DNA of 64,000 nucleotides from a virus (IMGVR_UViG_3300031088_000776), one strand, 5' to 3'. Positions 5,588 to 64,000 are shown, counted from the first letter of the stretch. The notes: generated from the letters alone by a model not told the origin. Made by a program: numbers and translations.

Positions 5588-6679
5588 GTGAAGTATCATG
5601 TTAACGATGAAGGTCGAGTTCTTGTTTGCAAGGCTGATGTTCGAAGCTGTAACTTCGGTGAAGAAGAAGGCGGTATTGGCCACTATCCTAACCCTAAAGA
5701 CGCTGAGAAAGCATATGAGCGTCATATGCAATCAAAAATTTTCGCGAATGTTTCACGTCATCCTGAAATTCGTTACGAAGCTCCTTTAGAGTCTGCTAGT
5801 TATCATGAAAAAGTCCTTAGAGACTGCTATGACCGAAACAAAGAAATGTCGCAAATACAGCTGGCTAAACATTATAACTATGTTAGCGATACTATTTCAG
5901 AGCTTTATAAAAAAGGGATGACTACTGAAAAGACTCACGCTAGAGAAACTAAAGCTGGCCTAGCATTTAATGATGAAAGAGTCAAGGCTCATACTGAAAT
6001 CATTAATGAATTTATCGAAAAATATAAAGAAGTTCCTGAAAATGGTGAGGCTTTGTTCGCTGGCGGTCTCGGCGGGGCAGGCAAGTCTACAGTTCTAGGG
6101 CAATACGCTGGAATTGATCAATCGAAGTACGTAACCTTAAACCCCGATGATATTAAAGAGATTATGGCTGAGAAAGGATTGATCCCTAAAGTTAAGGGTC
6201 TGACTCCAATGGAGGCATCTCCTTTAGTCCATGAAGAGGCATCGCATATTACTGCTATAATCTTTGAAAAGATTCGTCAAAAGAAAAAGAATATTATCTT
6301 CGATATAACAATGTCTAGTCTTGGTTCAGTACAAAATAGAATACTTCATCTTAAGAAAGCAGGATATACTAAAGTTAGTGGTGTTTTTGTGGATATTACT
6401 CCAGAGACTTCGCATGAGAGAGGCGAGTATCGCTACCGTCAAGGTCTTCAGGATTATCTGAAAAATAAAAACGGCCACGGTGGGAGATTCTTACCGGGTA
6501 ATATTACAAGTGGTTTAAAGACAGATGAAGATAGTCAATTTAAATCTAAGAATGCTGAAAACTTTGTGAATCTTGCTAAACTTGGCGGTTTCACGCATAT
6601 GCCTCGAGTTTTTAATAATAATGTTTTTGGTCGTGACCCACAAGAAATAAGCTTTAAGAAGTTCGTTAAAGGTGAGTAG
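5588..6679 (+). CDS. N-module family protein with a C-terminal P-loop kinase (zeta-toxin/AAA_33-like)
   Basis: N-terminus MKYHVNDEGRVLVCKADVRSCNFG..GHY..AEKAYE carries the shared module. The C-terminal domain has the Walker A motif GGLGGAGKST. Confidence 0.5.
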   Translation: MKYHVNDEGRVLVCKADVRSCNFGEEEGGIGHYPNPKDAEKAYERHMQSKIFANVSRHPEIRYEAPLESASYHEKVLRDCYDRNKEMSQIQLAKHYNYVSDTISELYKKGMTTEKTHARETKAGLAFNDERVKAHTEIINEFIEKYKEVPENGEALFAGGLGGAGKSTVLGQYAGIDQSKYVTLNPDDIKEIMAEKGLIPKVKGLTPMEASPLVHEEASHITAIIFEKIRQKKKNIIFDITMSSLGSVQNRILHLKKAGYTKVSGVFVDITPETSHERGEYRYRQGLQDYLKNKNGHGGRFLPGNITSGLKTDEDSQFKSKNAENFVNLAKLGGFTHMPRVFNNNVFGRDPQEISFKKFVKGE

Positions 6680-7607: not shown

Positions 7608-8381
7608 ATGACTAGATACCATATTAACGATGCGGGTAATCCTGGGCAGTGTGAAGCGAAGATCAAGTGCCGCTTTGGTGATTTAGAGACTGAGCATTAC
7701 GGATCGCGAGAAGAAGCTGCACAAGCCTATGAAGAGAAGCAAGAAAAGGAGATTCAAGAAGCGCGGAAAGCCTTAGACACTCTTAATAAACTTGAAGGTG
7801 TTAGCAGAAGTTTAACTAAAAACTCAGATAGACTTAGACAAAAGATTGAAGCTACAGAGAAGATCGTTAAAGTTGCGTCTAACGAGGGGAATTTAGATTC
7901 TTTCGAGAAGCATTATAATGAATTAAAAAAGCTTGAAGCAGAACGTAAAGAAGTTGAGACGAAACGAAAAGAAGTTGCTTCAATAATCTCTAAAAAAGAA
8001 GAGTTACAGAAATCAAGCTCACAAAAGACAACAGCTGCTCAACTACGAATTGCTGAAGATAAAACACTAGAGACTCGAGCTAAACTAATTAAAGATAAAT
8101 CAAAGTTGCAGGCTGCTGAAAAGAAGTTTAACTCAAAAATAGCCTCTAGGGCTGATATAAGCGAGCTGAAGCCACTTATGGAAGAACTTAAAATATTACA
8201 AGATCAAGTTGAACAATCTAACTCAGACTGGAAGAAGGCTACCTCTGAACTTTCAAAACTTAAGAAAGCGGAGCCAAAACGAAAGAAAAGCAATCCAGAA
8301 GTAAAGACGCTTAAGAAGTCTTCTCGAAGTGAAGATTACTACAATTATAATTGTGGTGGATACGGATCTGGTCGATGCTAA
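7608..8381 (+). CDS. N-module family protein with a Lys-rich coiled-coil C-terminus
   Basis: N-terminus MTRYHINDAGNPGQCEAKIKCRFG..EHY..AAQAYE. The remainder is a coiled coil that ends CGGYGSGRC. Confidence 0.5.
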   Translation: MTRYHINDAGNPGQCEAKIKCRFGDLETEHYGSREEAAQAYEEKQEKEIQEARKALDTLNKLEGVSRSLTKNSDRLRQKIEATEKIVKVASNEGNLDSFEKHYNELKKLEAERKEVETKRKEVASIISKKEELQKSSSQKTTAAQLRIAEDKTLETRAKLIKDKSKLQAAEKKFNSKIASRADISELKPLMEELKILQDQVEQSNSDWKKATSELSKLKKAEPKRKKSNPEVKTLKKSSRSEDYYNYNCGGYGSGRC

Positions 8382-12678: not shown

Positions 12679-14052
12679 TTAATCTTCCTCTCCCTTCTCA
12701 ATTCTTGCGGCTTTCATCATTGCCATGAATTGATTTTTAACTCCTTGTTTTTCCCAAAAGTCCTTAATCTCGTTTCTTTGCTCTCCAGTAGTTGATTCGT
12801 CGCGGAAATCCTTAACACTAGCCCTTAAATCAGCAACTCTATCTTTTTTAGTTTGTTCCTTAGGCCATTGATATTCCCCAACTTCTTTGCGGTGAGTTTT
12901 GAAAATTGTTCGAAGATCTTTAAGGTCTTCATTCATAGCCTTACGATTATAGTCTTTACCAGTTTTAGCTCTAACGTTTTCCTCCATTCGGTCTCCAACA
13001 ACATCTAGAAGAGCTTTAGAGTTTAATTGGTAATTATCTTTTGTAGTATGGAAATTACGCCCTGGATTTTTAGGGTCAACAATTACCTTAGCGGTTGCCC
13101 AGTCTTTATACGGATTGTTGGCTGTATTCTCCCAATGCCCGTCAGAAATCTGCCCTTTAAGCTCATCTTCGAGCAACCATTTCTGCGCTTGAGTTCTAAC
13201 TCTAATAGTGTTGCCTTCGTCAGGAATCATGTGACCGAGACCGGCTTCTTCAAGCTCTGTCTGCTTATTCTCAACTTTTTTAATACTGTCTATCAATCGA
13301 CTACGAGCGCGTTCTTCACTTGCTTTATGCTTTTCAAGTCTCTCGACTAAATCAAATCCTTTACCTCTCGGATCAGAACCTGGAATCTTCTCTACTTTAT
13401 CAGTTTCTTTGTTGTAGCCGTAGTGATAGATACGACCTTCTTCTTCAGCATGTAGTTCATCATACTTCTTATGTCTCGAGATCATCTCGTTCAATTCGAG
13501 CCTTGCATAATTCTTATTTATAGCAGCAGTGTTCAATCCTTCAACCATAACCCTCTGCTTAGGTGTAGAGGTAATATTAGCTACGTAAGCGGGGATTTGT
13601 TGGATTGAATCTAGAGAGTCTTTCTCTTTTGCGTCAACATTACTCTCTACAGAGGCACCGTCTTCACGCTTCCAAGCCCCGTAACCTGCGCGAAGTTTTT
13701 CAGCAGTTGCAGATGTAGAAAGTTCCTTGCCTCCCTTGAAGGCTCGAACACTACCGTCTGGTTGAATCTCAATAACCTTACCCTGCGGATGCACATAACG
13801 CTCGACTTTAGAAGCGACTTCATATGCCCCACTAGTTAGAACACCGTTATTTGCTGAAGTAGGTTTATCATTAGTCTTTCTAGATTTCTTCATTGGTTTT
13901 TGAACTGTTTGTGAAGCCATTGAGAGTTCATATGCCTGCTGAGCTATCTCAGGTGACGAATAATGCTGTGCATCTCCACCAAATTTGCAATCACGAATTT
14001 CTGCAGTGCAGACTCCCGGGACTCCCTCATCGTTAACATGATATTTAGCCAT
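12679..14052 (-). CDS. N-module family protein (457 aa), C-terminal domain unknown
   Basis: N-terminus MAKYHVNDEGVPGVCTAEIRDCKFG..QHY..AQQAYE. Confidence 0.55.
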   Translation of the reverse strand: MAKYHVNDEGVPGVCTAEIRDCKFGGDAQHYSSPEIAQQAYELSMASQTVQKPMKKSRKTNDKPTSANNGVLTSGAYEVASKVERYVHPQGKVIEIQPDGSVRAFKGGKELSTSATAEKLRAGYGAWKREDGASVESNVDAKEKDSLDSIQQIPAYVANITSTPKQRVMVEGLNTAAINKNYARLELNEMISRHKKYDELHAEEEGRIYHYGYNKETDKVEKIPGSDPRGKGFDLVERLEKHKASEERARSRLIDSIKKVENKQTELEEAGLGHMIPDEGNTIRVRTQAQKWLLEDELKGQISDGHWENTANNPYKDWATAKVIVDPKNPGRNFHTTKDNYQLNSKALLDVVGDRMEENVRAKTGKDYNRKAMNEDLKDLRTIFKTHRKEVGEYQWPKEQTKKDRVADLRASVKDFRDESTTGEQRNEIKDFWEKQGVKNQFMAMMKAARIEKGEED

Positions 14053-15261: not shown

Positions 15262-15433
15262 TCTTAGAGTAGCGAAAACTGCGCTACTAAGACCACCTAG
15301 TTTGCCGTGATAGGCTCGGGTCTAACTAGGTGGTCTTTTCATGTTTAGATGCAGTTTTAACGGAAAATACTGTTTACTGTATGACTATACCCTAGACAGT
15401 AAAACCGATGCTACAGGACGCTTAGGCTCGACC
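15262..15433 (-). repeat. family A composite repeat, copy A2 (reverse orientation; acts as a + strand terminator)
   Basis: ctgcgctactaa, then gaccacctagtt [21-nt loop] aactaggtggtc, then tttt, followed by the reverse complement of the ttagggtatagtcatacag module. Confidence 0.8.
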
Positions 15434-28575: not shown

Positions 28576-29409
28576 ATGAATAGAATTTATAGGAATCTTG
28601 AAGAAATTGCACCTCATTTAGTTTCAGAGTGGGATATAGAACGCAATGGGAATAATCTTTACACTCATTTTTGGAATACTCGAGAAGACCCACCCCACTG
28701 GAAATGCAAAAAAGACCACCGGTGGACTATGCGATGGGATGCTAGAGTTGATCAAGGGCAAAATTGCCCCTATTGCTCTGGTAGAAGAATTATAGTCGGG
28801 GAGAACGATCTTCAGACTCGATTTCCAGAGATTTCTAAAGATTGGTCATTCGAATTAAACGAGCGAACGCCTATTGATTATCACCCCTATTCCCATAACA
28901 GAGTTTGGTGGAATTGTTCTGAAAATATTCACAAACCCTATTCACAGTTAATCTCTAAAAGAACTGGTCGTGGTACAGGTTGCCCTGAATGCTCTAAAGG
29001 TAGGGGCTCATCTAAAGGTGAATTTGAAGTTGGCCAACTTCTTGAAAGCATGGGGCTAAATTTTATACAGAATTCTAGAAAGATTATTCCACCTATGGAA
29101 TTAGACTTTTATATTTCTTCTCTTAATATTGGGATTGAATACAATGGAGAGTGGATGCATTCTAATCAAGCCTTGAAGCCTGATTCAAAGGATTCAAGTT
29201 TTCGTGATTATCACCTTAGGAAAAAGCGGCTTGCTAATTCTGAGAGTATTGATTTAGTTTTTGTGTGGGAGCATGATTGGACTGTACATAGAGATATAGT
29301 AAAAGAAGCTTTAATAGTGTTTTTCAAAACTGGGAAAATTTCAAAAATTCTTTCTCGTTTAGAGTCTTTTAAAGATGTTGATAAGGATTGCTGTTTATCG
29401 CGAGTCTAG
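28576..29409 (+). CDS. zinc-ribbon repeats plus a Vsr/DUF559-like endonuclease domain (homing-endonuclease-like), paralog 1
   Basis: WKCKKDHRW..CPYCSG, WNCSENIH..CPECSKG, then ELDFYISSLNIGIEYNGEWMHS..DLVFVWEHDW, which resembles the Vsr FVDGCFWH core. Confidence 0.6.
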   Translation: MNRIYRNLEEIAPHLVSEWDIERNGNNLYTHFWNTREDPPHWKCKKDHRWTMRWDARVDQGQNCPYCSGRRIIVGENDLQTRFPEISKDWSFELNERTPIDYHPYSHNRVWWNCSENIHKPYSQLISKRTGRGTGCPECSKGRGSSKGEFEVGQLLESMGLNFIQNSRKIIPPMELDFYISSLNIGIEYNGEWMHSNQALKPDSKDSSFRDYHLRKKRLANSESIDLVFVWEHDWTVHRDIVKEALIVFFKTGKISKILSRLESFKDVDKDCCLSRV

Positions 29410-29435: not shown

Positions 29436-29582
29436 AAGTAAAAACTGCGCTACTAAGACCACCTAGTTTGCCGTGATAGGCTCGGGTCTAACTAGGTGGT
29501 CTTTTGCAGTATTTTCGCAGTTTTACAGTGAAATGCTGTCTACTGTATGACTATACCCTAAGCAGCATTTTTGATGCTATAG
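29436..29582 (-). repeat. family A composite repeat, copy A3 (reverse orientation; terminator-like on the + strand)
   Basis: aaaactgcgctactaa, hairpin core, tttt, then the reverse complement of the ttagggtatagtcatacagtagac module. Confidence 0.8.
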
Positions 29583-37159: not shown

Positions 37160-39499
37160 TTGTCTAAAAGAAGTAGAAGAAAAGAAGCAGAAGAAGAGTC
37201 ATTCATTGACTTCTTCTCAGATAAAGCTCTCGTAGTTGAAGAATATAAAGAAAAGAAAACTTTCAGCAAAAACCTTAAAGCAGTTGCTGGCTTTCTTTCA
37301 CTATCAGTAATTCTCGGTTTAATCGTGACTATATACCCTATCATGGGGTTAAGTGCAGCGGCTAAGGTTGCTGAACCAATTGCTAAATATTGGAAAGACC
37401 TACCTTCAGAACTTGGCGAGACTTCAATCGCTGAAAGAAACGTTCTTTATGATAAGAATGGTAATATATTTGCGGAGGTTTGGGCTGAAGACCGCGTTCA
37501 GCTAAACTCCTTAGATGAAATTAGCGATTATGCTAAAAATGGTCTTATTGCGACTGAAGATAAGAGGTTCTATGAGCATGCTGGAATTGACTTCATAGGT
37601 ACGGCTCGATCAGCAATTTCGGGCTCAGGTGGCGGTTCAGGCATCACTCAGCAGCTTATCAAAAACTTGCAATTCTATGATCAAGCAGGTAAGGAAAAGA
37701 AAGCTGATGCGATTGAGCATTCATTATCAAGAAAGCTACAAGAATTAAAATACTCTATGGAGTACGAGAAGAGTCATTCTAAAGATGAAATACTTCTTGA
37801 ATATTTCAATACAGTAGCTTTTGGTGGCCCTAATACATATTCTATTGAAGCCGCTTCCCAATACTTCTTCGGAAAATCTGCTAAAAAGTTAGACCTTGCT
37901 GAGGCTTCAGCTCTCATTGGCACGGCAAACAATCCAGTTCTATTTAACCTTAAGCATACTGACGATGATGCACGGTGGAAAGACAGGCAGAAAGCTGTTC
38001 TAGATCGGATGGTAGCTGAAGGGCACATTACATCTGAAGAAGCTAAAAAGGCTGCAAAACAAAAACTTAAAATAGTCTTAAAAAAGTCACGTGGTAATTG
38101 TACTTCAAGCGAATATCCTTTTTACTGTGAGTATGTTATTGATTATTTAACCGACTCTGAAAAACTTGGTGAAGCTGCTGAGGAACGCGCTGCAGTTATC
38201 GCTAAGGGCGGTCTTCACATTAAGACTCATATGGACCCCGCTGCAATGGATCAAATTGATAAGAAACTTGAAGCAGAATTTGGGAACAACAATAGAGTTG
38301 TAGCACCTGTCGCCTTAGTCGAAGCTGGAACAGGCGGAGTCACTGCATTTGGTGTTAATAGAGATTACGGTGAAGGAAAAGGTAAGACTGTAATCAATGT
38401 TGCTAATAATCCCGCAGCAACGGGTTCAGCATATAAGGTATTCACTCTAGCAGCTGCTTTAAATTCTGGAAGAACAGAGTCTAGCTTAACTTTTGATGCA
38501 CCGTGTGTTTTTGCTCCTCAGGGTTATGATTATCCTAATAGCGGTTTTAAGAACTCTCAAGGTTGCGGTAAGCAGGCCGGTGTTCTAAACTATCAGCAAG
38601 CAACGGCTTACTCTTCTAACACTTGGTATACTAAATTAGCCACACAAATTGGATTAGATAAAGTTTACGACATTAGTCGGCAGTTGAATCTTAATGTCCC
38701 TGAAAACCTAACTAATAGAAGTCTTTCATTTGTTCTAGGTCCTGTTGAGAACTCTCCTATTGACATGGCAGCGGCATATGCTACATTTACTAATAAGGGA
38801 GTCTTCTGTCCAGCAACGCCCATTGAAGAATACCATTATTCTGATGGATCAGTTCCTGCGGTACCAGATACATACAGACCTGAAGATGATTCTTGTAAGC
38901 GTGTAACTTCACCAGCTACAGCTAGTACTGTATTAAAGGCTATGCGAGCAAATACTTATGGCGATGGAATTCCTGGTGCTTTTGGTACTCAAGGTCGAAT
39001 TAGTGGTTATGACTCTGTAGGTAAGTCTGGTACTAACCAGAGATATAATTACACTCAGGGTCAAGTCTCCGCTGATTATGGATTCTTTATTGACATTTAC
39101 GATATGGATAAAGTAAATAGAGGGGTTTATCAGAATAGTTATTATAGAGGTCAATTATGGCCTTACAACTACTCCGCTAAAGCGACTTCTTCAATCTTTG
39201 GGTCAGTTTTGAAAATGGGTAAGAATAAGAGTCTAGATTTCAACAATAAAGACACTTCATTCACTCCAGTGGAAATTGAAAAGAGAGATTATTTTACGAT
39301 TCCTTCAGTTCTTGGTATGACTGCTGAACAAGCAATGGATGCTATGTCTTCTATTGGCATACCCGTCTACGTCAGTAAGGAAACTGTAAAGGCTGATGGA
39401 CAATTCCCTGTCGGGGTCATTGGTGAGCAATCAATTTCCCCAGGCGAGGAGTTACCAGTTGGCACTAAGAAAGAAATTGTTCTTTACATAACTGAATAG
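37160..39499 (+). CDS. class A penicillin-binding protein (GT51 transglycosylase plus transpeptidase) with a C-terminal PASTA domain
   Basis: N-terminal TM helix. GT51 motif IATEDKRFYEHAGIDF. Transpeptidase motifs GSAYK (SxxK), SSN (SxN) and KSG. The C-terminal segment IPSVLGMTAEQAMDAMSSIGIPVYV is PASTA-like. Confidence 0.8.
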   Translation: MSKRSRRKEAEEESFIDFFSDKALVVEEYKEKKTFSKNLKAVAGFLSLSVILGLIVTIYPIMGLSAAAKVAEPIAKYWKDLPSELGETSIAERNVLYDKNGNIFAEVWAEDRVQLNSLDEISDYAKNGLIATEDKRFYEHAGIDFIGTARSAISGSGGGSGITQQLIKNLQFYDQAGKEKKADAIEHSLSRKLQELKYSMEYEKSHSKDEILLEYFNTVAFGGPNTYSIEAASQYFFGKSAKKLDLAEASALIGTANNPVLFNLKHTDDDARWKDRQKAVLDRMVAEGHITSEEAKKAAKQKLKIVLKKSRGNCTSSEYPFYCEYVIDYLTDSEKLGEAAEERAAVIAKGGLHIKTHMDPAAMDQIDKKLEAEFGNNNRVVAPVALVEAGTGGVTAFGVNRDYGEGKGKTVINVANNPAATGSAYKVFTLAAALNSGRTESSLTFDAPCVFAPQGYDYPNSGFKNSQGCGKQAGVLNYQQATAYSSNTWYTKLATQIGLDKVYDISRQLNLNVPENLTNRSLSFVLGPVENSPIDMAAAYATFTNKGVFCPATPIEEYHYSDGSVPAVPDTYRPEDDSCKRVTSPATASTVLKAMRANTYGDGIPGAFGTQGRISGYDSVGKSGTNQRYNYTQGQVSADYGFFIDIYDMDKVNRGVYQNSYYRGQLWPYNYSAKATSSIFGSVLKMGKNKSLDFNNKDTSFTPVEIEKRDYFTIPSVLGMTAEQAMDAMSSIGIPVYVSKETVKADGQFPVGVIGEQSISPGEELPVGTKKEIVLYITE

Positions 39500-52491: not shown

Positions 52492-52640
52492 AGACAGTAT
52501 TTTCTTCCTTAGGGTATAGTCATACAGTAGACAGTATTTCACTGCAAAACTGCATAGAAACAGTAAAAGACCACCTAGTTTGCCGTGATATTCTCGGGTC
52601 TAACTAGGTGGTCTTAGTAGCGCAGTTTCTACTCGATCTA
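52470..52640 (+). repeat. family A composite repeat, copy A4 (loop inverted relative to A1-A3)
   Basis: ttagggtatagtcatacagtagacag ... gaccacctagtt tgccgtgatattctcgggtct aactaggtggtc ttagtagcgcagttt. Confidence 0.8.
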
Positions 52641-52724: not shown

Positions 52725-53786
52725 ATGTCTAAGAAAGTCCTAAGGGGAGTCACAGATCTATCCTCACAAAAACCAGACGTAGCAAAAGATTGGGATTATT
52801 CTAAAAATTCTAAAACTCCAGGTGAAGTGTCTCAATACTCTAATAAGACAGCATGGTGGGTTTGCAATGAGCTTCACTCATGGGAGTCTGTTATTGCGAA
52901 TAGATCTAAAGGTTCGGGATGCCCCGAATGCGCTAAAACTACTCGCGGTGAAAATATTAGTAAAGCTAAAAATATTAGTAATAAGCCATTATATGGTCAT
53001 AAAGAGCTTAAGAAAGAATTCTGCATAGTTAATTCTTACAATCCATACATTAAAGGAAATTCATATCAATCAAAAGTTCTATGGATATGCTCGGAATGTT
53101 CAAAAAGTTGGGTTGCTAAGATTAGCAAAAGAATTAAAGGTAGTGGTTGCCCAAATTGCTGGAAGTTAAACAAAGGTAAAGAATATGTTAAATCAATAGT
53201 TAGATCTAAAGGTTCACTATTCTACACTAATCCAGAAGTTCAAGAATATTGGGACTACGAGAAGAATAAGTTACATAAAATTTATCCAGAAAAGTTTTCA
53301 GCAGGGTCTCACTCTTACGCCTATTGGTTTTGCCCAAAATGCAAGCATTCATGGAGGGCAATAATAAAAAGTGTCGCAATCAAGGGTTCAAGATGTTCTA
53401 AGTGCATGAGTAAAACATCTAAAGGGGAAGAAGAATTATTTAATTTCGTTAGAAGTCTTTATAAAGACGCAATCAAGAATGATAGGAAAATTGTCAATCC
53501 TAAAGAATTAGATATTTATATTCCTAGCAAGAAAGTAGCAATAGAGTACAACGGTGAATATTGGCACTCTAATGAAGTTATGTCTGTTAGAATAAACAGA
53601 ATTTCTGAAGAATATCACAGAGAGAAGATACAGATTTGTGAGGCATATGGAATTGATTTACTTTTTGTCTGGGAGGATGATTGGCTTAGGAATAAAGACA
53701 CAGTTAAAGAATTAATTATAAGATACTTTGATAATAGACAAAAGAACAGCATATTTAAAAGACTTATTTCTAATAGAGATCTATAG
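52725..53786 (+). CDS. zinc-ribbon repeats (at least five) plus a Vsr/DUF559-like endonuclease domain, paralog 3
   Basis: WWVCNELHSW..GSGCPECAK, WICSECSKSW..GSGCPNCWK and WFCPKCKHSW..GSRCSKCMSK. The C-terminus is ELDIYIPSKKVAIEYNGEYWHS..LLFVWEDDW. Confidence 0.6.
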   Translation: MSKKVLRGVTDLSSQKPDVAKDWDYSKNSKTPGEVSQYSNKTAWWVCNELHSWESVIANRSKGSGCPECAKTTRGENISKAKNISNKPLYGHKELKKEFCIVNSYNPYIKGNSYQSKVLWICSECSKSWVAKISKRIKGSGCPNCWKLNKGKEYVKSIVRSKGSLFYTNPEVQEYWDYEKNKLHKIYPEKFSAGSHSYAYWFCPKCKHSWRAIIKSVAIKGSRCSKCMSKTSKGEEELFNFVRSLYKDAIKNDRKIVNPKELDIYIPSKKVAIEYNGEYWHSNEVMSVRINRISEEYHREKIQICEAYGIDLLFVWEDDWLRNKDTVKELIIRYFDNRQKNSIFKRLISNRDL

Positions 53787-54117: not shown

Positions 54118-55608
54118 TTGCCAAGCAAAACAATAGAAAGAATCTGTTCTTTAGGTCATAAATATCCAAGTTATAAAAATATGAGATTAAGATGTCCCTA
54201 TTGTAACAATAAGAAACTTCTTAAAGGTTTTAATGACCTAAAGACTAAAAGACCAGACTTGGTTTTAGATTGGGGCAACAATAACAAAAAGAGTGTTAAG
54301 GATATAACTATAACATCAGATTATGAGGCCGAGTGGATTTGTCATAAATGCAAACATTGTTGGGTAACTGCTGTTCGCAATAGATCAAACAATAACAATT
54401 GCGTCTCCTGTGAAGACAAAAATTCAGGTAAAGAAAATAGTTTTCATTCTAATAGAGAAAATTTTAAGAAGCTATGGAGCGAGAAGTTAAATGGAGAGCT
54501 ACCTGTATATTTACCTAAATCCTCTTTAAGCATTTACTGGTTCACATGCGGTCAATTTGATCATGAATACCAAGCAACTGTGAAGTCTACTTTTAAAACA
54601 AAATTCAATTGCCAAGTCTGTTCTGGGAATGTTTTTAAAGTGGGGGTTAACGACGCTGAGAGTCTCTATCCTGAGTTAATTAGCAAATGGAGTTCAAGAA
54701 ATGACTTGAAACTTTCTGAAGTAAACCCAAAGTCAACTAAAGAGTATCTTTGGGTTTGTCAAGAGAACCATGAGTCTTTTAAAACTGTTCCAAGAGTGCT
54801 TTCTAAGCCTAATTGCAAGTATTGTCTAAAGAAGGATATAGAACTAGAGGATTCGATCTTATCTACGCATCCAGAATTAGCAAAGAATTGGTCTTCATTA
54901 AATTCTAAAAAATCTTCAGAAATTTCTTCAGGCTCAGGGTATACTGCAGTTTGGAATTGCACTGAGGAGGATCATTCGTTTAAGAGGATTGTCCATAGGT
55001 ATATCAGCAGTAACAACTCTTGCCCTATCTGTAAAGGACATAAACTTCTTAAAGGGTTTAACGATGTTTCTACTGTCTGGCCACAACTGAATGATTTACT
55101 TTCAGAAAGAAATGAGAATCAAAATATTCTTTCTGAAATAACTTTTAAGTTCTCTACCAAGCTTTACTGGACTTGTAAAAGGGGTCATGAAACTTATTGT
55201 TCAGCATATCAAAGAGCTAACTTTTCATGTGGTAAATGCACTAGCAGTAAGGGTGAAGACGAGTTAAATGACTTCGTTAACAGCCTTAAGTTAGATTCTA
55301 TTCAAGGCTGCAAAACCTTAATTAATCCTTTTGAAATAGATATCTATATTCCAAAATTGAATATTGCTTTAGAGTTTAATGGAGACTATTGGCATTCAGA
55401 TGAGATTGTTGCTGGTAAGAGTCGTTTTAAGACTGCTGAAGAATACCACTCATATAAAAAGCTTCTTTGTCGGGAAAAGAATATTGACCTGTACTTCATC
55501 TGGGAGAGCGATTGGATAGATAATCAAAGTGAAGTCAAAAGCTCTTTGAAAAGACTTCTCGAAGGAAATAAATCGGACCCTATTCTAGAAAAGTTATCGA
55601 ACTCTTAA
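54118..55608 (+). CDS. zinc-ribbon repeats (at least seven) plus a Vsr/DUF559-like endonuclease domain, paralog 4
   Basis: Multiple W.C..H/CxxC ribbons. The C-terminus is EIDIYIPKLNIALEFNGDYWHS..DLYFIWESDW. AAGGAG RBS plus TTG start. Confidence 0.6.
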   Translation: MPSKTIERICSLGHKYPSYKNMRLRCPYCNNKKLLKGFNDLKTKRPDLVLDWGNNNKKSVKDITITSDYEAEWICHKCKHCWVTAVRNRSNNNNCVSCEDKNSGKENSFHSNRENFKKLWSEKLNGELPVYLPKSSLSIYWFTCGQFDHEYQATVKSTFKTKFNCQVCSGNVFKVGVNDAESLYPELISKWSSRNDLKLSEVNPKSTKEYLWVCQENHESFKTVPRVLSKPNCKYCLKKDIELEDSILSTHPELAKNWSSLNSKKSSEISSGSGYTAVWNCTEEDHSFKRIVHRYISSNNSCPICKGHKLLKGFNDVSTVWPQLNDLLSERNENQNILSEITFKFSTKLYWTCKRGHETYCSAYQRANFSCGKCTSSKGEDELNDFVNSLKLDSIQGCKTLINPFEIDIYIPKLNIALEFNGDYWHSDEIVAGKSRFKTAEEYHSYKKLLCREKNIDLYFIWESDWIDNQSEVKSSLKRLLEGNKSDPILEKLSNS

Positions 55609-57111: not shown

Positions 57112-59511
57112 TTATGCGCTGATTGATTTGACTCGATCAATGTAAACTGCCCTCATGCTACGCTTCAGTTCTTCATCTTGAACGTTAAGAGACTCAATAG
57201 AAAAATTGTTGTGGACTAAGAACATAGCTTTATTGAGAAGATCTTTTGTCTTCTTTGGGGCCTTCGATGACTTCAGAGTGTCCTTAAGTCCTCTAAAATT
57301 GTCATTGGTTAGCATATGGTACAAAGTATAATCAATTTCTCCGCTGTAATAGAGTTTTCTAAAGTTAAGATCAGGTGTTGAAGCCTTCATTTTACCCATC
57401 TCTGTTGGGAATAATGCTTCTAATTCATTTAGCTCTAGGCTTCTCTTGTAGCTTGAGAAGTAGTAAGTCATGATTAACTTGAATAGATTCTCAGGGTCAT
57501 TTTCGATCAACTTTGAAATTGCTCGACGCATATTAGCTTCGGGCTTCACAAGGTTTTTCTTAGCATATTCAGTAAGATAAACTCCACGAGGTGGCATTGT
57601 AGTGAATACGCACTTTTTACCTTTTGACTCTAATTCTTGAAGGTGGCTAGTCTTAAAATCATTGTAGTCAACGAATAGAACACAATCGCTCTCGACATCA
57701 ATTTTCTCTGAATTGTCAGCTCCGTTTGCAGCGTGCTCAATCTTGCAATCGCTACTCCGATAAACAATAACAGAATCAATCTCATTTAGACTATAAGTTT
57801 TCTTGAAAGCTTTAATGCCAATACTGTCTTTAGGGGATAACCAGCCTTTAATCAATCCACTATCTGCGCTTACAGAATTAGAACCTCTTGACTTCTTATT
57901 TTCGCGCTTATACTTTCGAGCCTCAGCAAGAAGATCTAGCATCGAAATAAACTCAATCTCACAGTCAAAGAGAACTCCCTTTGTAGAAATCAACTTAGGC
58001 ACTTCAAAACCTTCTTCAAGAATAATGAAAATGCTCTTACGCTTATCACCGCGAGAAGCTAGGAAACCGCGGCGGTGCTCATGCCAACCCTTAATAGTTT
58101 CGCTGCTAGCACCTGTTACGAAGAAGACATTATCAAAATCAGAACTTTCACCGCTTCTCGTAATGTTTTCATGGACGACAGAGCTATAAAAATCTTTTGG
58201 CTCGTGAGCATCGAAATTCTTTTCGAATTCCTTTGGTGAGCACTTCTCGATGTTGCATGTGTCTGAATATTCATAATTAACTTTATCTGAATTATTATTA
58301 GGAGAATTATGGCGTCTTCTAGCCACAATTGCTTCACGAACCCCTTTAGAATCAACAAGATTTCTAATAGTGTTGTAAATGCTTAGAGACTCGATTTTTT
58401 CTTTGTATGACTCATCAAATTTCAATACTGAATGAACAGTTCCAGATTGCGCAACTCTTCCGAAGTAAGATACACACATGTTCATAGCCTTAAGAGCTCT
58501 CTTCTCAAGAGATGTATTCATAGAGTCTACCGCCTTCAAGCAGTCAAACTTAAACTCAGGACCATTAATATAATCGTGAATCTTTCTATTTAGCTCTTCA
58601 CTGCGATTATCATGAGTAACTTCATCACGCGACGAGCTAAAGTTTACTACACCAGGCTTCAACTCAAATAGGATATTAGGCTCATCATTGTAGTAGTAGT
58701 TCCGATACTGTGAACCCTGTGAATAAACCCAGCCTCCAAGCCATAAAGCGGGGTTCAAGCGACTAATGTTCAATTCTGAGTTCATAAAGACTCGACCGTA
58801 AGTCTTTTCACCAGTCTTCTCGTCTTCATCAAGTAGTATCTCACCGATAGTGATCCAGTCCTTGGAGGCCTCGAAGCTATCTTCACCGTTGATGACAATT
58901 TCAAGGTCAAGTGAGTACTTCTGATACTTTTTAACAAGCTTCAGGAATTCTGAAGTGTCATCCTCTTTTACGGGGATAGAGACTTCAGTACCAGTAGAGT
59001 CATTCGTGGGACGATTCTTATAGACTACTTTAAGTTTGTAGCCAGCACTAGTATTGCTAAGAATGACAAGATTGGCTAGGCCGTCTTTAATAGATCGAAT
59101 ACTGAATTCAGTAGTGTAAGAGAGAGGCGCCTTGATACCTAGACCGTGCGAACCGATCTGAGTCATATCATCACCCTTATCGCTAGCACCGTAGTATCGG
59201 CAGTACTTAGTGAGAGAATCATAGTCCATACCAACACCGAAGTCACGAGTGATAAAAGTTCCCTGAATAGAGTCAAACTCTACCTGAATAGGCTTAGCAT
59301 TAGGTACTCTTACTGATGCGTCAATAGCATTAGAGATAGTTTCTCGAACTGTAGCTTCTTTAGGGTTCTTGTAAAGAAGAGTTAATCGGTCGATAATGTG
59401 ATTACGAGATTCCGAAAGTACATCCATATCAAATTCTTCAACAGGTTCAATAAGAGACTCTACAGTCTCCTTAGAAATTGTTGAATTATTTGATGATTTA
59501 GACAAAGCCAT
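57112..59511 (-). CDS. GHKL-superfamily (Hsp90/MORC-like) ATPase domain protein, about 800 aa
   Basis: N-box TISNAIDAS, G1 ITRDFGVGMD and G2 GSHGLGIKAPLS. GGAGGAG RBS lies before the ATG at 59511, which starts MALSKSS. Confidence 0.55.
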   Translation of the reverse strand: MALSKSSNNSTISKETVESLIEPVEEFDMDVLSESRNHIIDRLTLLYKNPKEATVRETISNAIDASVRVPNAKPIQVEFDSIQGTFITRDFGVGMDYDSLTKYCRYYGASDKGDDMTQIGSHGLGIKAPLSYTTEFSIRSIKDGLANLVILSNTSAGYKLKVVYKNRPTNDSTGTEVSIPVKEDDTSEFLKLVKKYQKYSLDLEIVINGEDSFEASKDWITIGEILLDEDEKTGEKTYGRVFMNSELNISRLNPALWLGGWVYSQGSQYRNYYYNDEPNILFELKPGVVNFSSSRDEVTHDNRSEELNRKIHDYINGPEFKFDCLKAVDSMNTSLEKRALKAMNMCVSYFGRVAQSGTVHSVLKFDESYKEKIESLSIYNTIRNLVDSKGVREAIVARRRHNSPNNNSDKVNYEYSDTCNIEKCSPKEFEKNFDAHEPKDFYSSVVHENITRSGESSDFDNVFFVTGASSETIKGWHEHRRGFLASRGDKRKSIFIILEEGFEVPKLISTKGVLFDCEIEFISMLDLLAEARKYKRENKKSRGSNSVSADSGLIKGWLSPKDSIGIKAFKKTYSLNEIDSVIVYRSSDCKIEHAANGADNSEKIDVESDCVLFVDYNDFKTSHLQELESKGKKCVFTTMPPRGVYLTEYAKKNLVKPEANMRRAISKLIENDPENLFKLIMTYYFSSYKRSLELNELEALFPTEMGKMKASTPDLNFRKLYYSGEIDYTLYHMLTNDNFRGLKDTLKSSKAPKKTKDLLNKAMFLVHNNFSIESLNVQDEELKRSMRAVYIDRVKSISA

Positions 59512-59885
59512 TTGTTCTCCTCCAAGATAGTAAATGTTCTTAAACATCCTATATGAAGAATTTAAAAGTTGCAAATCATTAATCAGAACTCTGTAAAGAA
59601 GACATTCTTAATAGTTTTATCTTCTACGTATTGCCTTAAAGAGTAAAACGCGAGGTAAAGATCATCTAAACAGCAAAAACGCTATCAATTAAAATTCAGT
59701 ATTCAGTTGCTATAGAAACGAAGAACTGATTTTAGAAAACTTTTTAAAAATTTTTAGAATTTTCATATTCAGGCTGTATCTCAGATGGTATATTGATTTT
59801 GCTCAATTCGATATTATTCCAAATTTTTAGTGCGGTGGCTCGCAAGGTCGCTAAACAAAGACTGTTTTAGCATAAGGAGTTTGTC

Positions 59886-60479
59886 ATGAACACCTCTATC
59901 TTTTCCGAATACAGCGACCTATACATGCGCCCATTCGAGCGTAATAATGACGCTATAAGTATTGCCCATATTTTACTTGACGAGAGAACCTGGTCGGGTG
60001 GTTTCGCAGACTCTTCTCGAACTCCAACTTCAATTGAAGACGCACTCGAGTTAGTTGATACTAGAAATGAAAACTCCACTATTTTTACTATTCTAAAAGC
60101 TTCAAGTAACACTATTGTTGGAAGTACTGGAGTAACAATGTGGGATCTTGAACGTGAGACAGCAAAAATTGGAAGAACTCTCATCAACCCTGACTTCTGG
60201 GGTCAAGGTGTCAATCATGAAATGAAGCTAATGTTCTTAGATCAGTTATTCATAAATAGCATTGGAAGAGTTGAATGCGATGTAGCGCCAACAAATGTCA
60301 ATAGTATGAGATCTCTTGAAAGATTTGGATTCACTTTTGAGGGTGTAAAGCGCCGGGCAGTGCAAAGACTCGACGGCACTTGGCGCGACACTGCAATTTT
60401 CTCTATGACAATAGAAGAATGGCCCTACAAGCGTGAACCGATTGTTGAAAGCTTAAAGTCAAAAATGAAGTCTTCGTAA
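59886..60479 (+). CDS. GNAT family N-acetyltransferase
   Basis: FWGQGVNHE (motif A-like) and SMRSLERFGFTFEGV (motif B-like). Confidence 0.65.
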   Translation: MNTSIFSEYSDLYMRPFERNNDAISIAHILLDERTWSGGFADSSRTPTSIEDALELVDTRNENSTIFTILKASSNTIVGSTGVTMWDLERETAKIGRTLINPDFWGQGVNHEMKLMFLDQLFINSIGRVECDVAPTNVNSMRSLERFGFTFEGVKRRAVQRLDGTWRDTAIFSMTIEEWPYKREPIVESLKSKMKSS

Positions 60480-60502
60480 AATTTAAGAATAAAAATAAAA
60501 TA

Positions 60503-60550
60503 AGAGGCGGTAGGAAAATACTCATTTTATTTCCTACCGCCTCTGCTTTT
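60503..60550 (+). terminator. intrinsic terminator
   Basis: agaggcggtaggaaa ... tttcctaccgcctct, then gctttt. Confidence 0.8.
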
Positions 60551-60612
60551 AAAGCATTTAGCTTAGCATAATTGAATTAGAAAACAATTAAAGTTTCTCT
60601 AAAGGAGTAAAT

Positions 60613-61695
60613 ATGGCGAAGTACCACATTAGCGAAGACGATCAAGTGCGAGCTTGCAAGGCAAAAATAAAATGCCCTCTAGGTGGAGAGGAAGAGCATT
60701 ATTCTGACAAGAAAGAGGCTTTAGAAAGTCTTGAAAAAATTATTGAAATGGAAATGTCTATTGCTGAAAAGAAACCACAGAAAAGAGCGCCACAGTTAAC
60801 TCAAGCTTTAAAGTCTAAAATGAAATATACAGGTGAAGAGCCAGAGTGGTTTAAAAGTATCAAAGAAGAGTCTTCAGAATTATTTGGAAAACCTTCAGAA
60901 ATTATTGACGAAATTGAGATTGAAGGTCGCCCTACTCTAGTCGTATGGAATAACGAGTCACTCCGCAAACAAGATCGCGGACCTCAGCGGTCAGGATACA
61001 GTGTAAGCAGACTTGAATATAGAGACAAAGAAACTGGAGAAGAGCAGGCCTATCTTAATACTATTTACTCTACAGACGAGTCTTCCGAAAGAGTTTTCAA
61101 AAATGACGAATTGACTCCAATACGCTATCTAGCTAATGAGAACTCCTACTTCTATAGCTATAAAGATGAAGATAAACTACGAAAACTTAAAAAACTTGAA
61201 GAAAACGATAAAGGGTCTGAAGAAACTTATAACGAAAAAATAAAACTATGGAAGTTAGGTACTTTTCATCTTCGAGCAGACTTAGGTAGACGCCCCATTG
61301 AAGGGTACAGCTTTGACGAAAAAGACATACCAAAAGACGAAAAAGATCTTGATAAAGACATTGAGAAAATTATCGAAGCAGGTAAAGTCAAATACGACGA
61401 GTATAGGTTAAGATCTAAGACTCCGGGCATTGATTACTCTAGAGTCTCAGATAAGTTAAGAGGCAAAGGATTAGGTGCTTCACTCTATATCTATACCGCA
61501 AAAAAGCTTGCTGAAAAAGATCTAGTTTTATCCTCTTCAACAAACCAAACTGAAGAAGCTTTAAAGGCTTGGCAGAGAATGGGAAAGGACACTAAAATCC
61601 CAATGAAAGTTGTAGTCACTAAATATGTTAACGATGGTTACTCGTCTAATCAAGAAAGGTTTGCTATAGATTTTAGGAAAGATAAGACTAAGTGA
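60613..61695 (+). CDS. N-module family protein, C-terminus possibly GNAT-like
   Basis: N-terminus MAKYHISEDDQVRACKAKIKCPLGGEEEHYS..EALESLE. In the C-terminus, LRGKGLGASLYIY resembles GNAT motif A (R/Q-x-x-G-x-G/A). Confidence 0.5.
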   Translation: MAKYHISEDDQVRACKAKIKCPLGGEEEHYSDKKEALESLEKIIEMEMSIAEKKPQKRAPQLTQALKSKMKYTGEEPEWFKSIKEESSELFGKPSEIIDEIEIEGRPTLVVWNNESLRKQDRGPQRSGYSVSRLEYRDKETGEEQAYLNTIYSTDESSERVFKNDELTPIRYLANENSYFYSYKDEDKLRKLKKLEENDKGSEETYNEKIKLWKLGTFHLRADLGRRPIEGYSFDEKDIPKDEKDLDKDIEKIIEAGKVKYDEYRLRSKTPGIDYSRVSDKLRGKGLGASLYIYTAKKLAEKDLVLSSSTNQTEEALKAWQRMGKDTKIPMKVVVTKYVNDGYSSNQERFAIDFRKDKTK

Positions 61696-61742
61696 TAGCG
61701 AACAAAAGTAACTCTCAAATAATTTAGGAAAATACTAGAAAA

Positions 61743-62813
61743 ATGGCAAAATACCACATCTCCAAAAATGGCGAAGCTAAAATTTGCACAGCTAAGAAAA
61801 GAGCCTGTCGATACGAGAGTGAAGAACACTTTGAATCTTATGAAGCAGCGCAATCAAAGTCTGAAGAAATACTTTCTAAAAGATTTGGGAATATTGAAAC
61901 TATTAAAAGAGATACATCAGTAAGAAATAATAAGGCTTCAAAGTCTCGAAGCAATGACAAAGCCTTTACTGTAAGTCAATTAACAAAAGATATTCAAAGT
62001 TTTGCAAAAAATACTCCTCCAAGAAGATTAAATAAGTCTTTTAAGCTTCCTGAGGTTGCGCAAATCAAGGCTGAACTATTAAAATTCAACAATTCTGGAG
62101 ACCACTATCTTGACGAGAAGACTTTGCGATTCTACGAAAATAAGATAAGTATTATGGCGACCTTCAAAGATTTCGATGACGCTCCAACCTTACTTTACAT
62201 TGACAAGAGAAGCGGGACACTTTCGATCCGAGACAATCTAGATGAGATTGATGAAAAAGAAGATGATGATCTTGTAGTAAGATATATAGAAACCAAACTC
62301 AGTGATGAAGAGCTAGAAGACCCTTATAAAATTTCTGAAAAGGTTGCTGATCTCATGGATGATGCTGATAGGATTAAAGACTGGGGCTCACAAGAAAGGG
62401 CTGTTGCTGCTGCATATCTATCTTATGAGCATTATAGAATTAACGAAGCTTTGAGGAACAATACAGCAAGCGATAGCTTAAAGAAATCTATAGAAAAACT
62501 TGAGAGACAGCACACTTTAAAAGAGGAGAAAGTTGTCTACAGAGGGTTGAGAAACTTAAGTGCAGATATTGCAGAAAGCTTATCAAATGGTTCATTTAAA
62601 GATGGTGGGTTATTATCGACCTCTACTAACCCAAAGACAGCATTAGGCTTCTCAGGCAATAAAAAAGACTCAATAATACTCAAAATAATACTCCCTAAAG
62701 GTACTGAATGCTGGAACATGAGTGATGATTCAGAGAATGAGATAATTCTGCCTCGAAACTTCGATCTTTCAAAAGCTCAAATTCTGAAACTTAACGAAAG
62801 ACTAGACGTGTAA
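61743..62813 (+). CDS. N-module family protein with a C-terminal ADP-ribosyltransferase domain (R-S-E class, C3/VIP2/Alt-like)
   Basis: N-terminus MAKYHISKNGEAKICTAKKRACRY..EHF..AAQ. The C-terminus has YLSYEHYRINEALRN, VVYRGL (Arg), LLSTSTN (STS) and ENEIILP (ExE). Confidence 0.65.
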   Translation: MAKYHISKNGEAKICTAKKRACRYESEEHFESYEAAQSKSEEILSKRFGNIETIKRDTSVRNNKASKSRSNDKAFTVSQLTKDIQSFAKNTPPRRLNKSFKLPEVAQIKAELLKFNNSGDHYLDEKTLRFYENKISIMATFKDFDDAPTLLYIDKRSGTLSIRDNLDEIDEKEDDDLVVRYIETKLSDEELEDPYKISEKVADLMDDADRIKDWGSQERAVAAAYLSYEHYRINEALRNNTASDSLKKSIEKLERQHTLKEEKVVYRGLRNLSADIAESLSNGSFKDGGLLSTSTNPKTALGFSGNKKDSIILKIILPKGTECWNMSDDSENEIILPRNFDLSKAQILKLNERLDV

Positions 62814-62825
62814 TTTGCTTGTTCT

Positions 62826-62990
62826 AAGGTTGAGCCTAAGCGGTCTATAGAGTCGAAAATACTGCTTAGGGTATAGTCATACAGTAGACAGCATTTTCCG
62901 TTAAAACTGTCATTTTACAGCAAAAGACCACCTAGTTTGCCGTGATAGGCTCGGGTCTAACTAGGTGGTCTTAGTAGCGCAGTTTTCGCT
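62826..62990 (+). repeat. family A composite repeat, copy A5 (loop inverted; terminator-like on the - strand)
   Basis: gagcctaagcggtctatagagtc ... ttagggtatagtcatacagtagacag ... gaccacctagtt tgccgtgataggctcgggtct aactaggtggtc ttagtagcgcagttttcgctac. Confidence 0.8.
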
Positions 62991-63028
62991 ACATTATAGA
63001 ATCAGTATTTTCAACTTCTATTCAGTCT

Positions 63029-63439
63029 TTAAAATAATTCAAGCGTAAAGAAAATATAACCTAATTTACCCCATACAATCAGATATGCTATAGTAAGAGG
63101 CAATTCAATTGCTAAAAAATTTTTAAAATTATTACTATAAACATCACCTTTTATTAAAGTCTTTTTGTTTTTTGATGAAACCCAAAAATTCAGAAATAAG
63201 AAGAAGATTATAATAGCTAAAATATTCCATAAATCAAAACCATAAAAAGGAGACAATAATGTCACATATATAAATCCTATAAAAGTTAGAATAAGGGATC
63301 TATTCTGATTCTTAGATTCCCAACTCAATCTTCTTTCTTCGCCAAGTTGGCTAAAAATAGAAACATTATGAAAGTTCCTCCAAAAAATTGTAAAAGTGAA
63401 GGATAGAATCAGTAAACTTGCAGATATTATGTTTAACAC
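63029..63439 (-). CDS. small polytopic membrane protein (immunity- or holin-like)
   Basis: 136 aa with four TM helices. It overlaps the upstream Gly-rich gene by 7 bp. Confidence 0.4.
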   Translation of the reverse strand: MLNIISASLLILSFTFTIFWRNFHNVSIFSQLGEERRLSWESKNQNRSLILTFIGFIYVTLLSPFYGFDLWNILAIIIFFLFLNFWVSSKNKKTLIKGDVYSNNFKNFLAIELPLTIAYLIVWGKLGYIFFTLELF

Positions 63440-63915
63440 TCGTCTTTGCCTTTCGTTGATAGATAACCTACTCTATCTAAAGCGAAGCCTGATGATTGAG
63501 TAGAGCTATAAGCTATTTTTTGATTTAAATTTTTAGCTCTTAATACTGCATCTTCGATTGAATTTGATCTTGTCTTAGAGTAATTAATTGTTGAGTTATA
63601 CATACCATCAAAATATTTCCTGCCAGGACCTACAAAAGGTATTGCTGATACAGTTGTAGAGGCTATTCCCCATCCACATGTTGCGTCTAAATTGTTAAGA
63701 CAGTTACCGATTGTAGCGCCAGCGCCTGAGGCTAAACTAGCGAATCCCATTACTCCTGCTACTGCTCCAGTAAAAGGGGCTGTTATTGGTACAAATACAG
63801 CGACTGTAGCACTTGCTGCTGCTATACCTCCAGTAATAGTACTTAACTTACCAAGAACTTCAATTGTATTTTCATCTGTTATAAAGTTTTTCACTCTATT
63901 TCCTAGCTCTCCCAT
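63433..63915 (-). CDS. Gly/Ala-rich membrane-active protein with a possible double-glycine leader (bacteriocin-like)
   Basis: N-terminus ...NTIEVLGKLSTITGG is followed by a GxxxG-rich hydrophobic segment (IAAASATVAVFVPITAPFTGAVAGVMGFASLASGAGATIG) and a C.....C pair. Confidence 0.3.
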   Translation of the reverse strand: MGELGNRVKNFITDENTIEVLGKLSTITGGIAAASATVAVFVPITAPFTGAVAGVMGFASLASGAGATIGNCLNNLDATCGWGIASTTVSAIPFVGPGRKYFDGMYNSTINYSKTRSNSIEDAVLRAKNLNQKIAYSSTQSSGFALDRVGYLSTKGKDEC

Positions 63916-64000
63916 GAGAATAATCCTAGTGGAAGTATTAAGTCAAGAATAGTTTAATAATAAAATAAGTTACTATGTATATTTTTGACAAACTTCACAT

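Follow-up and report, generated by a model that had tools for sequence, protein, structure and literature searches.

A predicted R-S-E ADP-ribosyltransferase with a shared N-terminal Cys/His module, a candidate address module of very large phages

The question raised by the locus at 61743..62813 (+ strand) of the window, the whole 64,000-nucleotide stretch of viral DNA analysed here, is whether its product is an ADP-ribosyltransferase (ART) that a phage turns on its host, and why such an enzyme should begin with a short module that it shares with otherwise different proteins. The open reading frame on which an earlier note had based both ideas is real and complete, running from ATG to TAA and encoding 356 amino acids that fall into four parts, all on the + strand. 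The first is the shared N-module (aa 1-47; 61743..61883), recognised by alignments, by an HMM, and by an AlphaFold prediction with a pLDDT of 80 for the module alone. A linker rich in Lys, Ser and Arg follows (aa 48-76; 61884..61970), residues 48-71 of which are predicted to be disordered (pLDDT <50), and after it a middle alpha/beta domain (aa 77-209; 61971..62369) that is kept across the ART family and confidently modelled. The last part is the catalytic domain (aa 214-349; 62382..62789), assigned to the R-S-E clade by Pfam, by PHROG, by profile matches to the PDB and by the structure model. That model, built with AlphaFold2 on a 17-sequence alignment, has a mean pLDDT of 81, with the ART domain at 82-95 (10-residue block means). 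The fold of the middle domain bears a weak resemblance to type III secretion chaperones and to an ART-toxin immunity protein.

Four motifs had been claimed as the ordered hallmarks of the enzyme, and all four are present in that order: YLSYEHYRINEALRN at aa 225-239, VVYRG at 264-268, LLSTSTN at 290-296, and ENEII at 331-335. The candidate catalytic residues are accordingly placed at Arg267 (codon 62541..62543), at Ser292-Thr293-Ser294 of the STS motif (62616..62624), and at Glu331-Asn332-Glu333 of the ExE motif (62733..62741). The Pfam family PF03496 (ADPrib_exo_Tox) matches aa 214-342 with 40 bits against a gathering score of 23.4 (E 3.6e-10), and because this score lies above a curated threshold the motif match is judged to go beyond chance. 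A second family, PHROG 802 ('Alt-like RNA polymerase ADP-ribosyltransferase'), matches with an E value of 6.9e-7. The precomputed Pfam annotation of the record already marks the ART domain. When the whole protein was compared with 1.84 billion representative proteins, 143 matches at E 1e-3 or better were obtained; every one looked up comes from a metagenome and has either no name or no label beyond 'hypothetical protein'. Good alignment across the C-terminal 250 residues was obtained for 17 homologues of full or nearly full length, which retain the residues expected of an active enzyme, with R267 kept in 16/17, S292 in 15/17, T293 in 16/17, E331 in 15/17 and E333 in 16/17; the departures are confined to two divergent homologues that are probably inactive.

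A search of the PDB with the single protein (phmmer) found no match, and a family profile was required to reach proteins of solved structure. With that profile the best matches are ExoT (E 2.1e-7), HopU1 (3.6e-7), ExoS (7.5e-7) and Vip2 (2.2e-5), followed by Vis, SpvB, Tre1, C3larvin, C3stau2 and Certhrax. The Arg and STS residues fall in register with those of ExoT and ExoS, and in the alignment to HopU1 the Arg, STS and ExE residues all do so; Arg267 also pairs with the corresponding Arg of Alt, and the ExE motif with EEE of HopU1 and EME of Alt. A comparison of the predicted structure against the PDB with Foldseek ranks ExoS, CDTa and Certhrax first, which argues for an ART fold in the model. 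The earlier note had named two findings that would count against its reading, a model that lacks the ART fold and R/STS/ExE residues that do not align. The model has the fold and the residues align, so the C-terminal 140 residues make up a complete R-S-E mono-ADP-ribosyltransferase domain of the Alt/VIP2/C3/ExoS clade, with R267, S-T-S and E-x-E intact. Taken alone, this domain is a further new and divergent addition to a family of enzymes already well known from phages and toxins.

Within the ART clade, E-x-E enzymes modify arginine, and Q-x-E enzymes such as C3 modify asparagine. By the E-x-E rule, and by it only, the acceptor residue would be an arginine. The enzyme would be expected to bind NAD+, release nicotinamide and transfer the ADP-ribose, and, to judge from other E-x-E enzymes, the acceptor may be an arginine of a host protein that is modified during takeover of the cell.

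The DNA was taken in the earlier note to come from a phage, and the surroundings of the gene bear this out. A protein identical to the product of the ART reading frame is recorded on a 697,643-bp metagenomic contig (ENA ERZ27247443 k141_1324127), position 221651 of which corresponds to position 61743 of the window. The G+C content of the sequence is 37.9%. In and around the window are genes for rIIA, rIIB, class I ribonucleotide reductase, DnaB, RecG and RecA, together with a T4-type dNMP kinase, a protein of the T4 alpha-glucosyltransferase (TAGT) family, an RNA ligase, several HNH/DUF4379 homing endonucleases, and many open reading frames without a known domain; the rIIA/rIIB, kinase, glucosyltransferase, ligase and homing endonuclease genes are the T4-type neighbours that speak for phage origin. 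From this gene content and the contig size we read the genome as that of a very large phage of about 700 kb. A small cellular genome, such as that of a CPR bacterium, was considered for this 697-kb contig and for the 880-kb contigs of an ART homologue, and was rejected on the T4-type gene content; runs of small ORFs of unknown function, the many HNH endonucleases, rIIA/rIIB and Rnl also counter it. No capsid, portal, terminase or other structural gene was seen in the approximately 84 kb inspected. Because PASTA-, G5- and NlpC/P60-bearing genes are present in or around the window, the host is likely to be a Gram-positive bacterium. The ART gene has no megablast or tblastn match in 50,697 deposited phage records, and its product no BLAST-level similarity to any cultured phage among them.

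More unusual than the ART domain is the N-module of the same protein. The earlier note had named a shared N-module without marking it as the more unusual part. Four ORFs of the window begin with M-x-K/R-Y-H-[IV]. An HMM made from the first ~43 columns of the paralogue alignment establishes it as real, recovering five ORFs in the window and one outside; these six copies in ~74 kb score between E 1e-12 and 1e-26, with nothing else below E 1. Each copy is joined to something different. At 5588..6679 (+) the module precedes a Zeta-toxin-like P-loop kinase (Pfam Zeta_toxin, E 6.6e-17), at 7608..8381 (+) a Lys/Glu-rich tail that is probably a coiled coil, and at 12679..14052 (-) a 400-residue region without a known domain. 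At 60613..61695 (+), immediately before the ART gene, a 360-residue protein has a weakly GNAT-like C-terminus with an RGKGLG motif (E 0.07-0.15, below threshold). The fifth copy is that of the ART protein itself, and the sixth, 7 kb past the window (L001 17573-18880, -), precedes a region with a HEYCH (HExxH) motif.

In 29 module sequences His5, Cys15, Ala17, Cys22 and His29 are invariant. The pattern recurs in 67 non-redundant sequences, where three positions left free by the search pattern (Ala37 and the second Cys and His) are invariant or nearly so. The four invariant residues His5, Cys15, Cys22 and His29 suggest that the module is probably a small HCCH fold with a putative zinc site. A weak match to DUF2188, which we take to have a similar YH..F..EA pattern but no cysteines, was obtained for one of 28 modules; if this kinship holds, His5 might have a structural role and not be a ligand. 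The module belongs to no Pfam, NCBIfam or PHROG family and has no structural match to a solved fold, and a tblastn search of the 50,697 phage records with its consensus gave nothing at E 0.1. In the model of the ART protein it forms a beta-hairpin (residues 4-6 and 12-14) and a helix (33-48). We would thus picture the N-module, of ~47 residues, as a non-catalytic unit of beta-hairpin and helix that is probably stabilised by zinc and is followed by a basic, disordered linker.

How widely the module is used was followed with a degenerate DNA pattern for K-Y-H-I-N-x2-G-x4-C-x-A. In IMG/VR 13 stretches matched, mostly on contigs of 250-440 kb, and several of them carry two or three adjoining module ORFs. 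Among 185,579 species-representative genomes there were six matches; four are chance, and the two genuine ones are in a Clostridiales MAG and in Gracilibacillus halotolerans DSM 11805, where two module ORFs lie next to each other. In a metagenome collection at least 119 stretches matched, and the matches listed include contigs of 727,571, 727,102, 673,773 and 436,870 bp and many of ~300 kb, some single contigs being matched at several distant places. With the HMM, at least 173 module ORFs were found in the at least 119 stretches; at least 153 are complete, and they form at least 75 clusters at 50% identity. The module is essentially always N-terminal, because it starts no more than 38 codons after the preceding stop in all but six of the at least 173 ORFs.

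Most C-termini of the module proteins have no known domain. Where domains could be matched, the partners comprise ADP-ribosyltransferases, recurrent Zeta toxin / AAA_33 kinases, a GNAT, a T4 Rnl1-type RNA ligase, a complete CCA-adding tRNA nucleotidyltransferase (L111 8344-9855), an MvaI/BcnI-type nuclease, a RecE-like exonuclease, and HEAT repeats. Within the ART family seven homologues have the same module (P0004, P0005, P0006, P0009, P0010, P0013 and P0016), and others begin with a different short Cys motif, MCR...RC. A module ORF followed by an ART gene, as at 60613-62813, is also found in the relatives L003 and L005, and since the gene for P0010, on ~880-kb contigs from several samples, likewise lies directly after another module ORF, the tandem arrangement is conserved. 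An apparent fusion of the module to a 'virion structural protein' family (L007) was set aside; the 4,690-bp contig is palindromic and probably chimeric, and the fusion point coincides with the end of homology to a normal 396-residue protein. Neither the combination of HCCH N-module, middle domain and ART nor the use of the module across at least 75 clusters of huge-phage proteins is described in three surveys (PMC7824862, PMC9503650, PMC5512222).

The list of partners bears on what the ART might modify. Three partners are of the tRNA/RNA repair type, the CCA-adding enzyme, the T4 Rnl1-type ligase, and the Zeta/AAA_33 P-loop kinases, which could be polynucleotide kinases; some R-S-E ARTs act on nucleic acids. 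One might accordingly suppose that the target is not a host protein at all but RNA, tRNA or DNA, that the enzyme serves mainly as an NADase or modifies a phage protein, and that the N-module is an RNA-binding zinc knuckle common to RNA-directed enzymes. We consider this improbable, as the closest relatives (ExoS/T, HopU1, VIP2, C3, Vis and Alt) are all protein-modifying, the E-x-E loop usual in arginine-specific enzymes is kept, and the module is about charge-neutral, not basic overall.

The region around the ART gene also speaks to how it is expressed. A copy of the motif TTAG[AG]AAA, TTAGGAAA, lies upstream of the gene at 61724..61731 (+), and further copies stand before module genes at 5554, 7561, 14088 (-) and 60577. 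Each of the five module genes of the window, and the sixth in L001, has the motif 19-47 nt ahead of its start codon, as has one module gene of the relative L003. The placement of the motif is non-random, because the window holds only 13 copies, fewer than in shuffled sequences. It is either a shared promoter or operator, or part of a 5' region that was duplicated together with the module. The ART gene begins 47 nt after the paralogue at 60613..61695 with no hairpin between them, and the two are probably co-transcribed, perhaps from the shared motif upstream. A strong hairpin at 60503-60544 parts this pair of module genes from the preceding gene, a stand-alone GNAT acetyltransferase of the RimJ/RimL type (59886..60479, +; Acetyltransf_3, E 1.2e-15) that lacks the N-module and is the first of a three-gene cluster of protein-modifying enzymes. 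Downstream, a perfect hairpin with a 13-bp stem (62925..62971, no strand assigned) lies between the ART gene and the genes convergent with it; it is probably a terminator, and is part of a ~100-nt element that recurs five times in the window. The spacer between the convergent genes holds three hairpins in all (z = -3.0), and Rfam finds nothing in 59400-64000.

The same neighbourhood has consequences for the view that the protein is the toxin of a toxin-immunity, abortive-infection or interbacterial-competition system carried on a mobile element. ART and Zeta-toxin domains are classic toxin modules, and the N-module does occur in two bacterial assemblies, those of the Clostridiales MAG and of G. 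halotolerans. Against this view, there is no co-oriented downstream gene that might confer immunity at this locus, where the downstream genes are convergent; no conserved downstream neighbour was seen among relatives of the ART locus, where these genes differ; the ART protein has no known secretion or trafficking domain; and the context is a huge, lytic-type phage genome. In addition, no macrodomain or ADP-ribosylhydrolase appears in the precomputed Pfam annotation of ~20 kb around the gene. Such a system is therefore very unlikely here, and the absence of an immunity gene is what would be expected of an enzyme aimed at a host destined for lysis.

We thus regard the protein, with somewhat better than even confidence, as a modular huge-phage enzyme, an R-S-E ART joined to an N-terminal address module that would bring different enzymes to one common place. 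As to where that place lies, the favoured answer, still a tentative one, is docking within the infected cell to a common partner, which could be a complex of host or phage origin or a nucleic acid. Partners such as the CCA-adding enzyme, the RNA ligase and the RecE-like exonuclease, which are normally cytoplasmic, favour intracellular docking, as does the position of the module genes among genes for replication and nucleotide metabolism and not among head genes. The near-neutral charge of the module is atypical of a nucleic-acid binder and argues against a nucleic acid as the docking partner.

Ranked second to docking, and rather doubtful, is loading into the virion followed by injection with the DNA. 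Here the ART would be an Alt-like injected effector whose N-module and basic linker form a virion-loading signal that works like the capsid-targeting sequence common to Alt and the internal proteins of T4, and all N-module proteins would be packed in the head, ejected with the DNA, and act before phage genes are expressed. Consistent with this, the module is strictly N-terminal in about 170 ORFs (at least 173 listed), a disordered basic linker follows it in the paralogues of the window, and huge-phage genomes carry several copies. The partners (ART, Zeta, HExxH, GNAT, nucleotidyltransferase and nuclease) overlap the head-packaged repertoire of polyvalent and MuF-fused proteins (PMC5512222, PMC9503650). 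Furthermore, Zeta-like paralogues match PHROG 16619 ('minor head protein') and one member matches PHROG 595 ('head maturation protease'). The latter match, however, could not be traced to a member, and there is no resemblance to T4 gp21 and no ClpP-like or HExxH motif. The genes lie among early-type genes for replication and nucleotide metabolism rather than beside head genes, the CCA-adding enzyme, RNA ligase and RecE-like exonuclease would be unexpected cargo, and a folded Cys/His domain is unlike the ~10-residue targeting peptide of T4. An alignment of 29 sequences contains no consistent prohead-protease cleavage motif after the module; of the sites considered (T4-type L/I-x-E and phiKZ-type S/A/G-x-E), a conserved A....E fits only some sequences and was discounted. 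Lastly, a 'virion structural protein' is fused to the module only on the palindromic contig.

A broader proposal, to which we give no more than modest weight, is that the HCCH module is a tag, stabilised by zinc and not previously described, with which huge phages of Gram-positive hosts sort or load proteins. Each genome would use it to send several enzymes with nothing else in common, perhaps many of them (ART, kinase, acetyltransferase, RNA ligase, CCA-adding enzyme, nucleases), to a single destination, which might be the capsid interior, for co-injection, or a specific compartment or complex in the infected cell. If true, such phages would possess a viral 'polymorphic effector' system and a targeting code particular to it. 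The value of the locus is in its architecture: a compact N-terminal Cys/His module, simple to recognise, labels a whole set of proteins in the largest known phages and may be usable as a marker of their effector or cargo set. Should it prove to be an address tag, a single HMM would pick the effector and cargo repertoire of huge phages from metagenomes, protein sorting or delivery by these phages would gain an experimental handle, and many C-terminal domains of unknown function would become candidate host-manipulating or counter-defence enzymes.

Compared to known systems, the catalytic domain of the protein may be set beside T4 Alt (and ModA/ModB), among the phage ADP-ribosyltransferases of the Alt/VIP2 family; Alt is likewise a phage-encoded R-S-E ART. 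Alt is packaged in the capsid by way of an N-terminal targeting region, is processed by the prohead protease and injected together with the DNA, and modifies Arg265 of the alpha subunit of RNA polymerase. The Y..IN..L, YR, STS and ExE..LPR motifs align with residues 422-585 of Alt, where hhalign pairs YVGSGYVDINNAL, LYR, STS and EMEVILPRG with the corresponding motifs of the ART protein, in an alignment of the profile to the single Alt sequence that is statistically weak (E 0.002, probability 14%). The ART protein is half the length of Alt, does not have its long insert between STS and ExE, and begins with the Cys/His module where Alt has an N-terminal region of its own. Related systems among PF03496 and its relatives are the C3 exoenzymes, VIP2/iota/C2-I/CDTa, ExoS/ExoT, HopU1, Vis, Certhrax and SpvB.

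The arrangement of a constant N-terminal part with variable enzymatic cargo is shared with effectors that carry the T4 capsid-targeting sequence and with MuF-fused and polyvalent effectors (PMC5512222, PMC9503650). In polyvalent proteins a single polypeptide combines two to fifteen effector domains, and usually includes a zincin-like metallopeptidase, MuF or other head-associated domain (PMC5512222). The ART reading frame does not belong with them, because each polypeptide has one effector domain; it has a single catalytic domain and no MuF or peptidase domain, and only the repertoire across the paralogues overlaps theirs. Moreover, the module is a folded Cys/His domain of ~47 residues, unlike the short T4 peptide or the MuF domain, and the module proteins carry one cargo each where MuF-fused and polyvalent effectors carry many. 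Polymorphic toxin systems also combine a constant N-terminal module with swapped C-terminal enzymes and have several paralogues per genome. The ART protein is not assigned to them, because no immunity gene lies downstream and the N-terminus matches no trafficking family in Pfam, NCBIfam or PHROG; a secretion domain is likewise absent, some partners are non-toxic (the CCA-adding enzyme and the RNA ligase), and the setting is viral.

A likeness of another kind is offered by Bacillus phage G, in which a small Cys/His module has also multiplied in a very large phage of a Gram-positive host. The module consensus showed no detectable similarity to the zinc ribbons of that phage by tblastn at E 0.1 against the 50,697 records, which we take to include phage G. 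The phage G zinc ribbons, a lineage-specific expansion of ~35 copies, are stand-alone candidate DNA binders and not N-terminal tags of enzymes (PMC7824862). Among the systems treated in the three surveys (PMC7824862, PMC9503650, PMC5512222), this expansion is the nearest analogy to the module.

Every gene for an N-module protein in this genome, the module being the N-terminal stretch of about 47 residues with a predicted Cys/His zinc site, is preceded by the sequence TTAG[AG]AAA, which lies 19-47 nt 5' of the start codon. The motif occurs only 13 times in the window, where the copies at N-module genes are found at 5554-5561, 7561-7568, 60577-60584 and 61724-61731, and on the minus strand at 14088-14095. 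Outside the window, it is present upstream of position 18880 (minus strand) in L001, the record that extends beyond the window end, and upstream of position 4938 in L003, a relative with tandem N-module ORFs. TTAG[AG]AAA is a candidate for a shared promoter or operator of the N-module genes. Directly 3' of the ADP-ribosyltransferase (ART) gene lies one copy (62925-62971) of a repeated intergenic element, roughly 100 nt long, whose other four copies are at 368-380, 15290-15336, 29456-29502 and 52568-52614, with both orientations represented. The core of the element is a hairpin with a perfect 13-bp stem, AGACCACCTAGTT-N21-AACTAGGTGGTCT, of which the loop and flanks are also conserved, the loop being inverted in one copy. 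Candidate identities for the element are a terminator module, a small RNA and a miniature mobile element.

An 880,409-bp metagenomic contig (ENA ERZ27247389 k141_483817) encodes, at positions 9401-11017 and directly 3' of another N-module ORF, a homologue with 31% identity to the ART protein over the best-aligned stretch, in surroundings that include dozens of small ORFs without known identity, a TyrRS gene and two RNase H genes. This homologue was recovered from several samples on contigs of about 880 kb, which, if viral, would represent an exceptionally large phage genome. In four of the aligned ART-family homologues (P0007, P0008, P0011 and P0015), the HCCH module is replaced by a different short N-terminus that starts with MC and has another Cys 7-10 residues later (P0007, P0011 and P0015 have MCR...RC, and P0008 has MCY...RC); it may represent a Cys/His tag in truncated form, or an alternative one. 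A pattern scan of 185,579 species-representative genomes found the N-module in only one isolate, the cultured Firmicute Gracilibacillus halotolerans DSM 11805, where two adjacent N-module ORFs (NZ_JACHON010000025.1, 2716-4611) offer a possible experimental entry point to the module.

Three paralogous proteins with DUF4379, a treble-clef zinc finger, are encoded on the plus strand of the window (28576-29409, 52725-53786 and 54118-55608), flanking the ribonucleotide reductase and RecA genes. The product of 54118-55608, the one paralogue of the three scanned against PHROGs, matches HNH/homing-endonuclease families, and the three are probably homing endonucleases. The window also encodes a tRNA with a CUA anticodon (3539-3611, plus strand), an amber suppressor labeled tRNA-Pyl by ARAGORN. 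Because TAG still terminates 10 of the 55 long ORFs in the window, any recoding would be partial, or limited to other (late?) genes. A class A penicillin-binding-protein-like gene with transglycosylase, transpeptidase and PASTA domains (37160-39499, plus strand) sits in this phage-type genome, and just outside the window, in L001, are genes for a polysaccharide deacetylase, an NlpC/P60-G5 protein and a second PASTA protein.

In a 4,690-bp contig (IMG/VR UViG_3300006524_000155), a 772-aa ORF combines the N-module and a homologous stretch of about 66 residues with a PHROG 3181 'virion structural protein' region; this contig is perfectly palindromic, and the fusion was set aside as a probable assembly chimera. 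Among 67 non-redundant metagenomic N-module proteins, one matched PHROG 595 'head maturation protease' (E 3.4e-11), and none resembled T4 gp21 or contained ClpP-like or HExxH motifs.

The N-module protein encoded at 5588-6679 (plus strand) has a P-loop kinase domain of the Zeta-toxin/AAA_33 kind (Pfam E 6.6e-17), a combination also found on the unrelated huge-phage contigs L008 and L018 and in two metagenomic clusters, and might act as a toxin of the UNAG-kinase type or as a polynucleotide kinase. A sixth paralogue, about 7 kb past the window end (L001 17573-18880, minus strand), contains a HEYCH (HExxH) motif that suggests a metallopeptidase, its sole Pfam matches being sub-threshold ones to SprT-like and Peptidase_M78. 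Fusions found elsewhere join the module to a complete CCA-adding tRNA nucleotidyltransferase with PolyA_pol, RNA-binding, tRNA_NucTran2_2 and HD domains (metagenomic locus L111, 8344-9855, minus strand), and to an RNA ligase of the T4 Rnl1 type (L018 6754-5231), showing that the tag is not confined to toxin-like domains.
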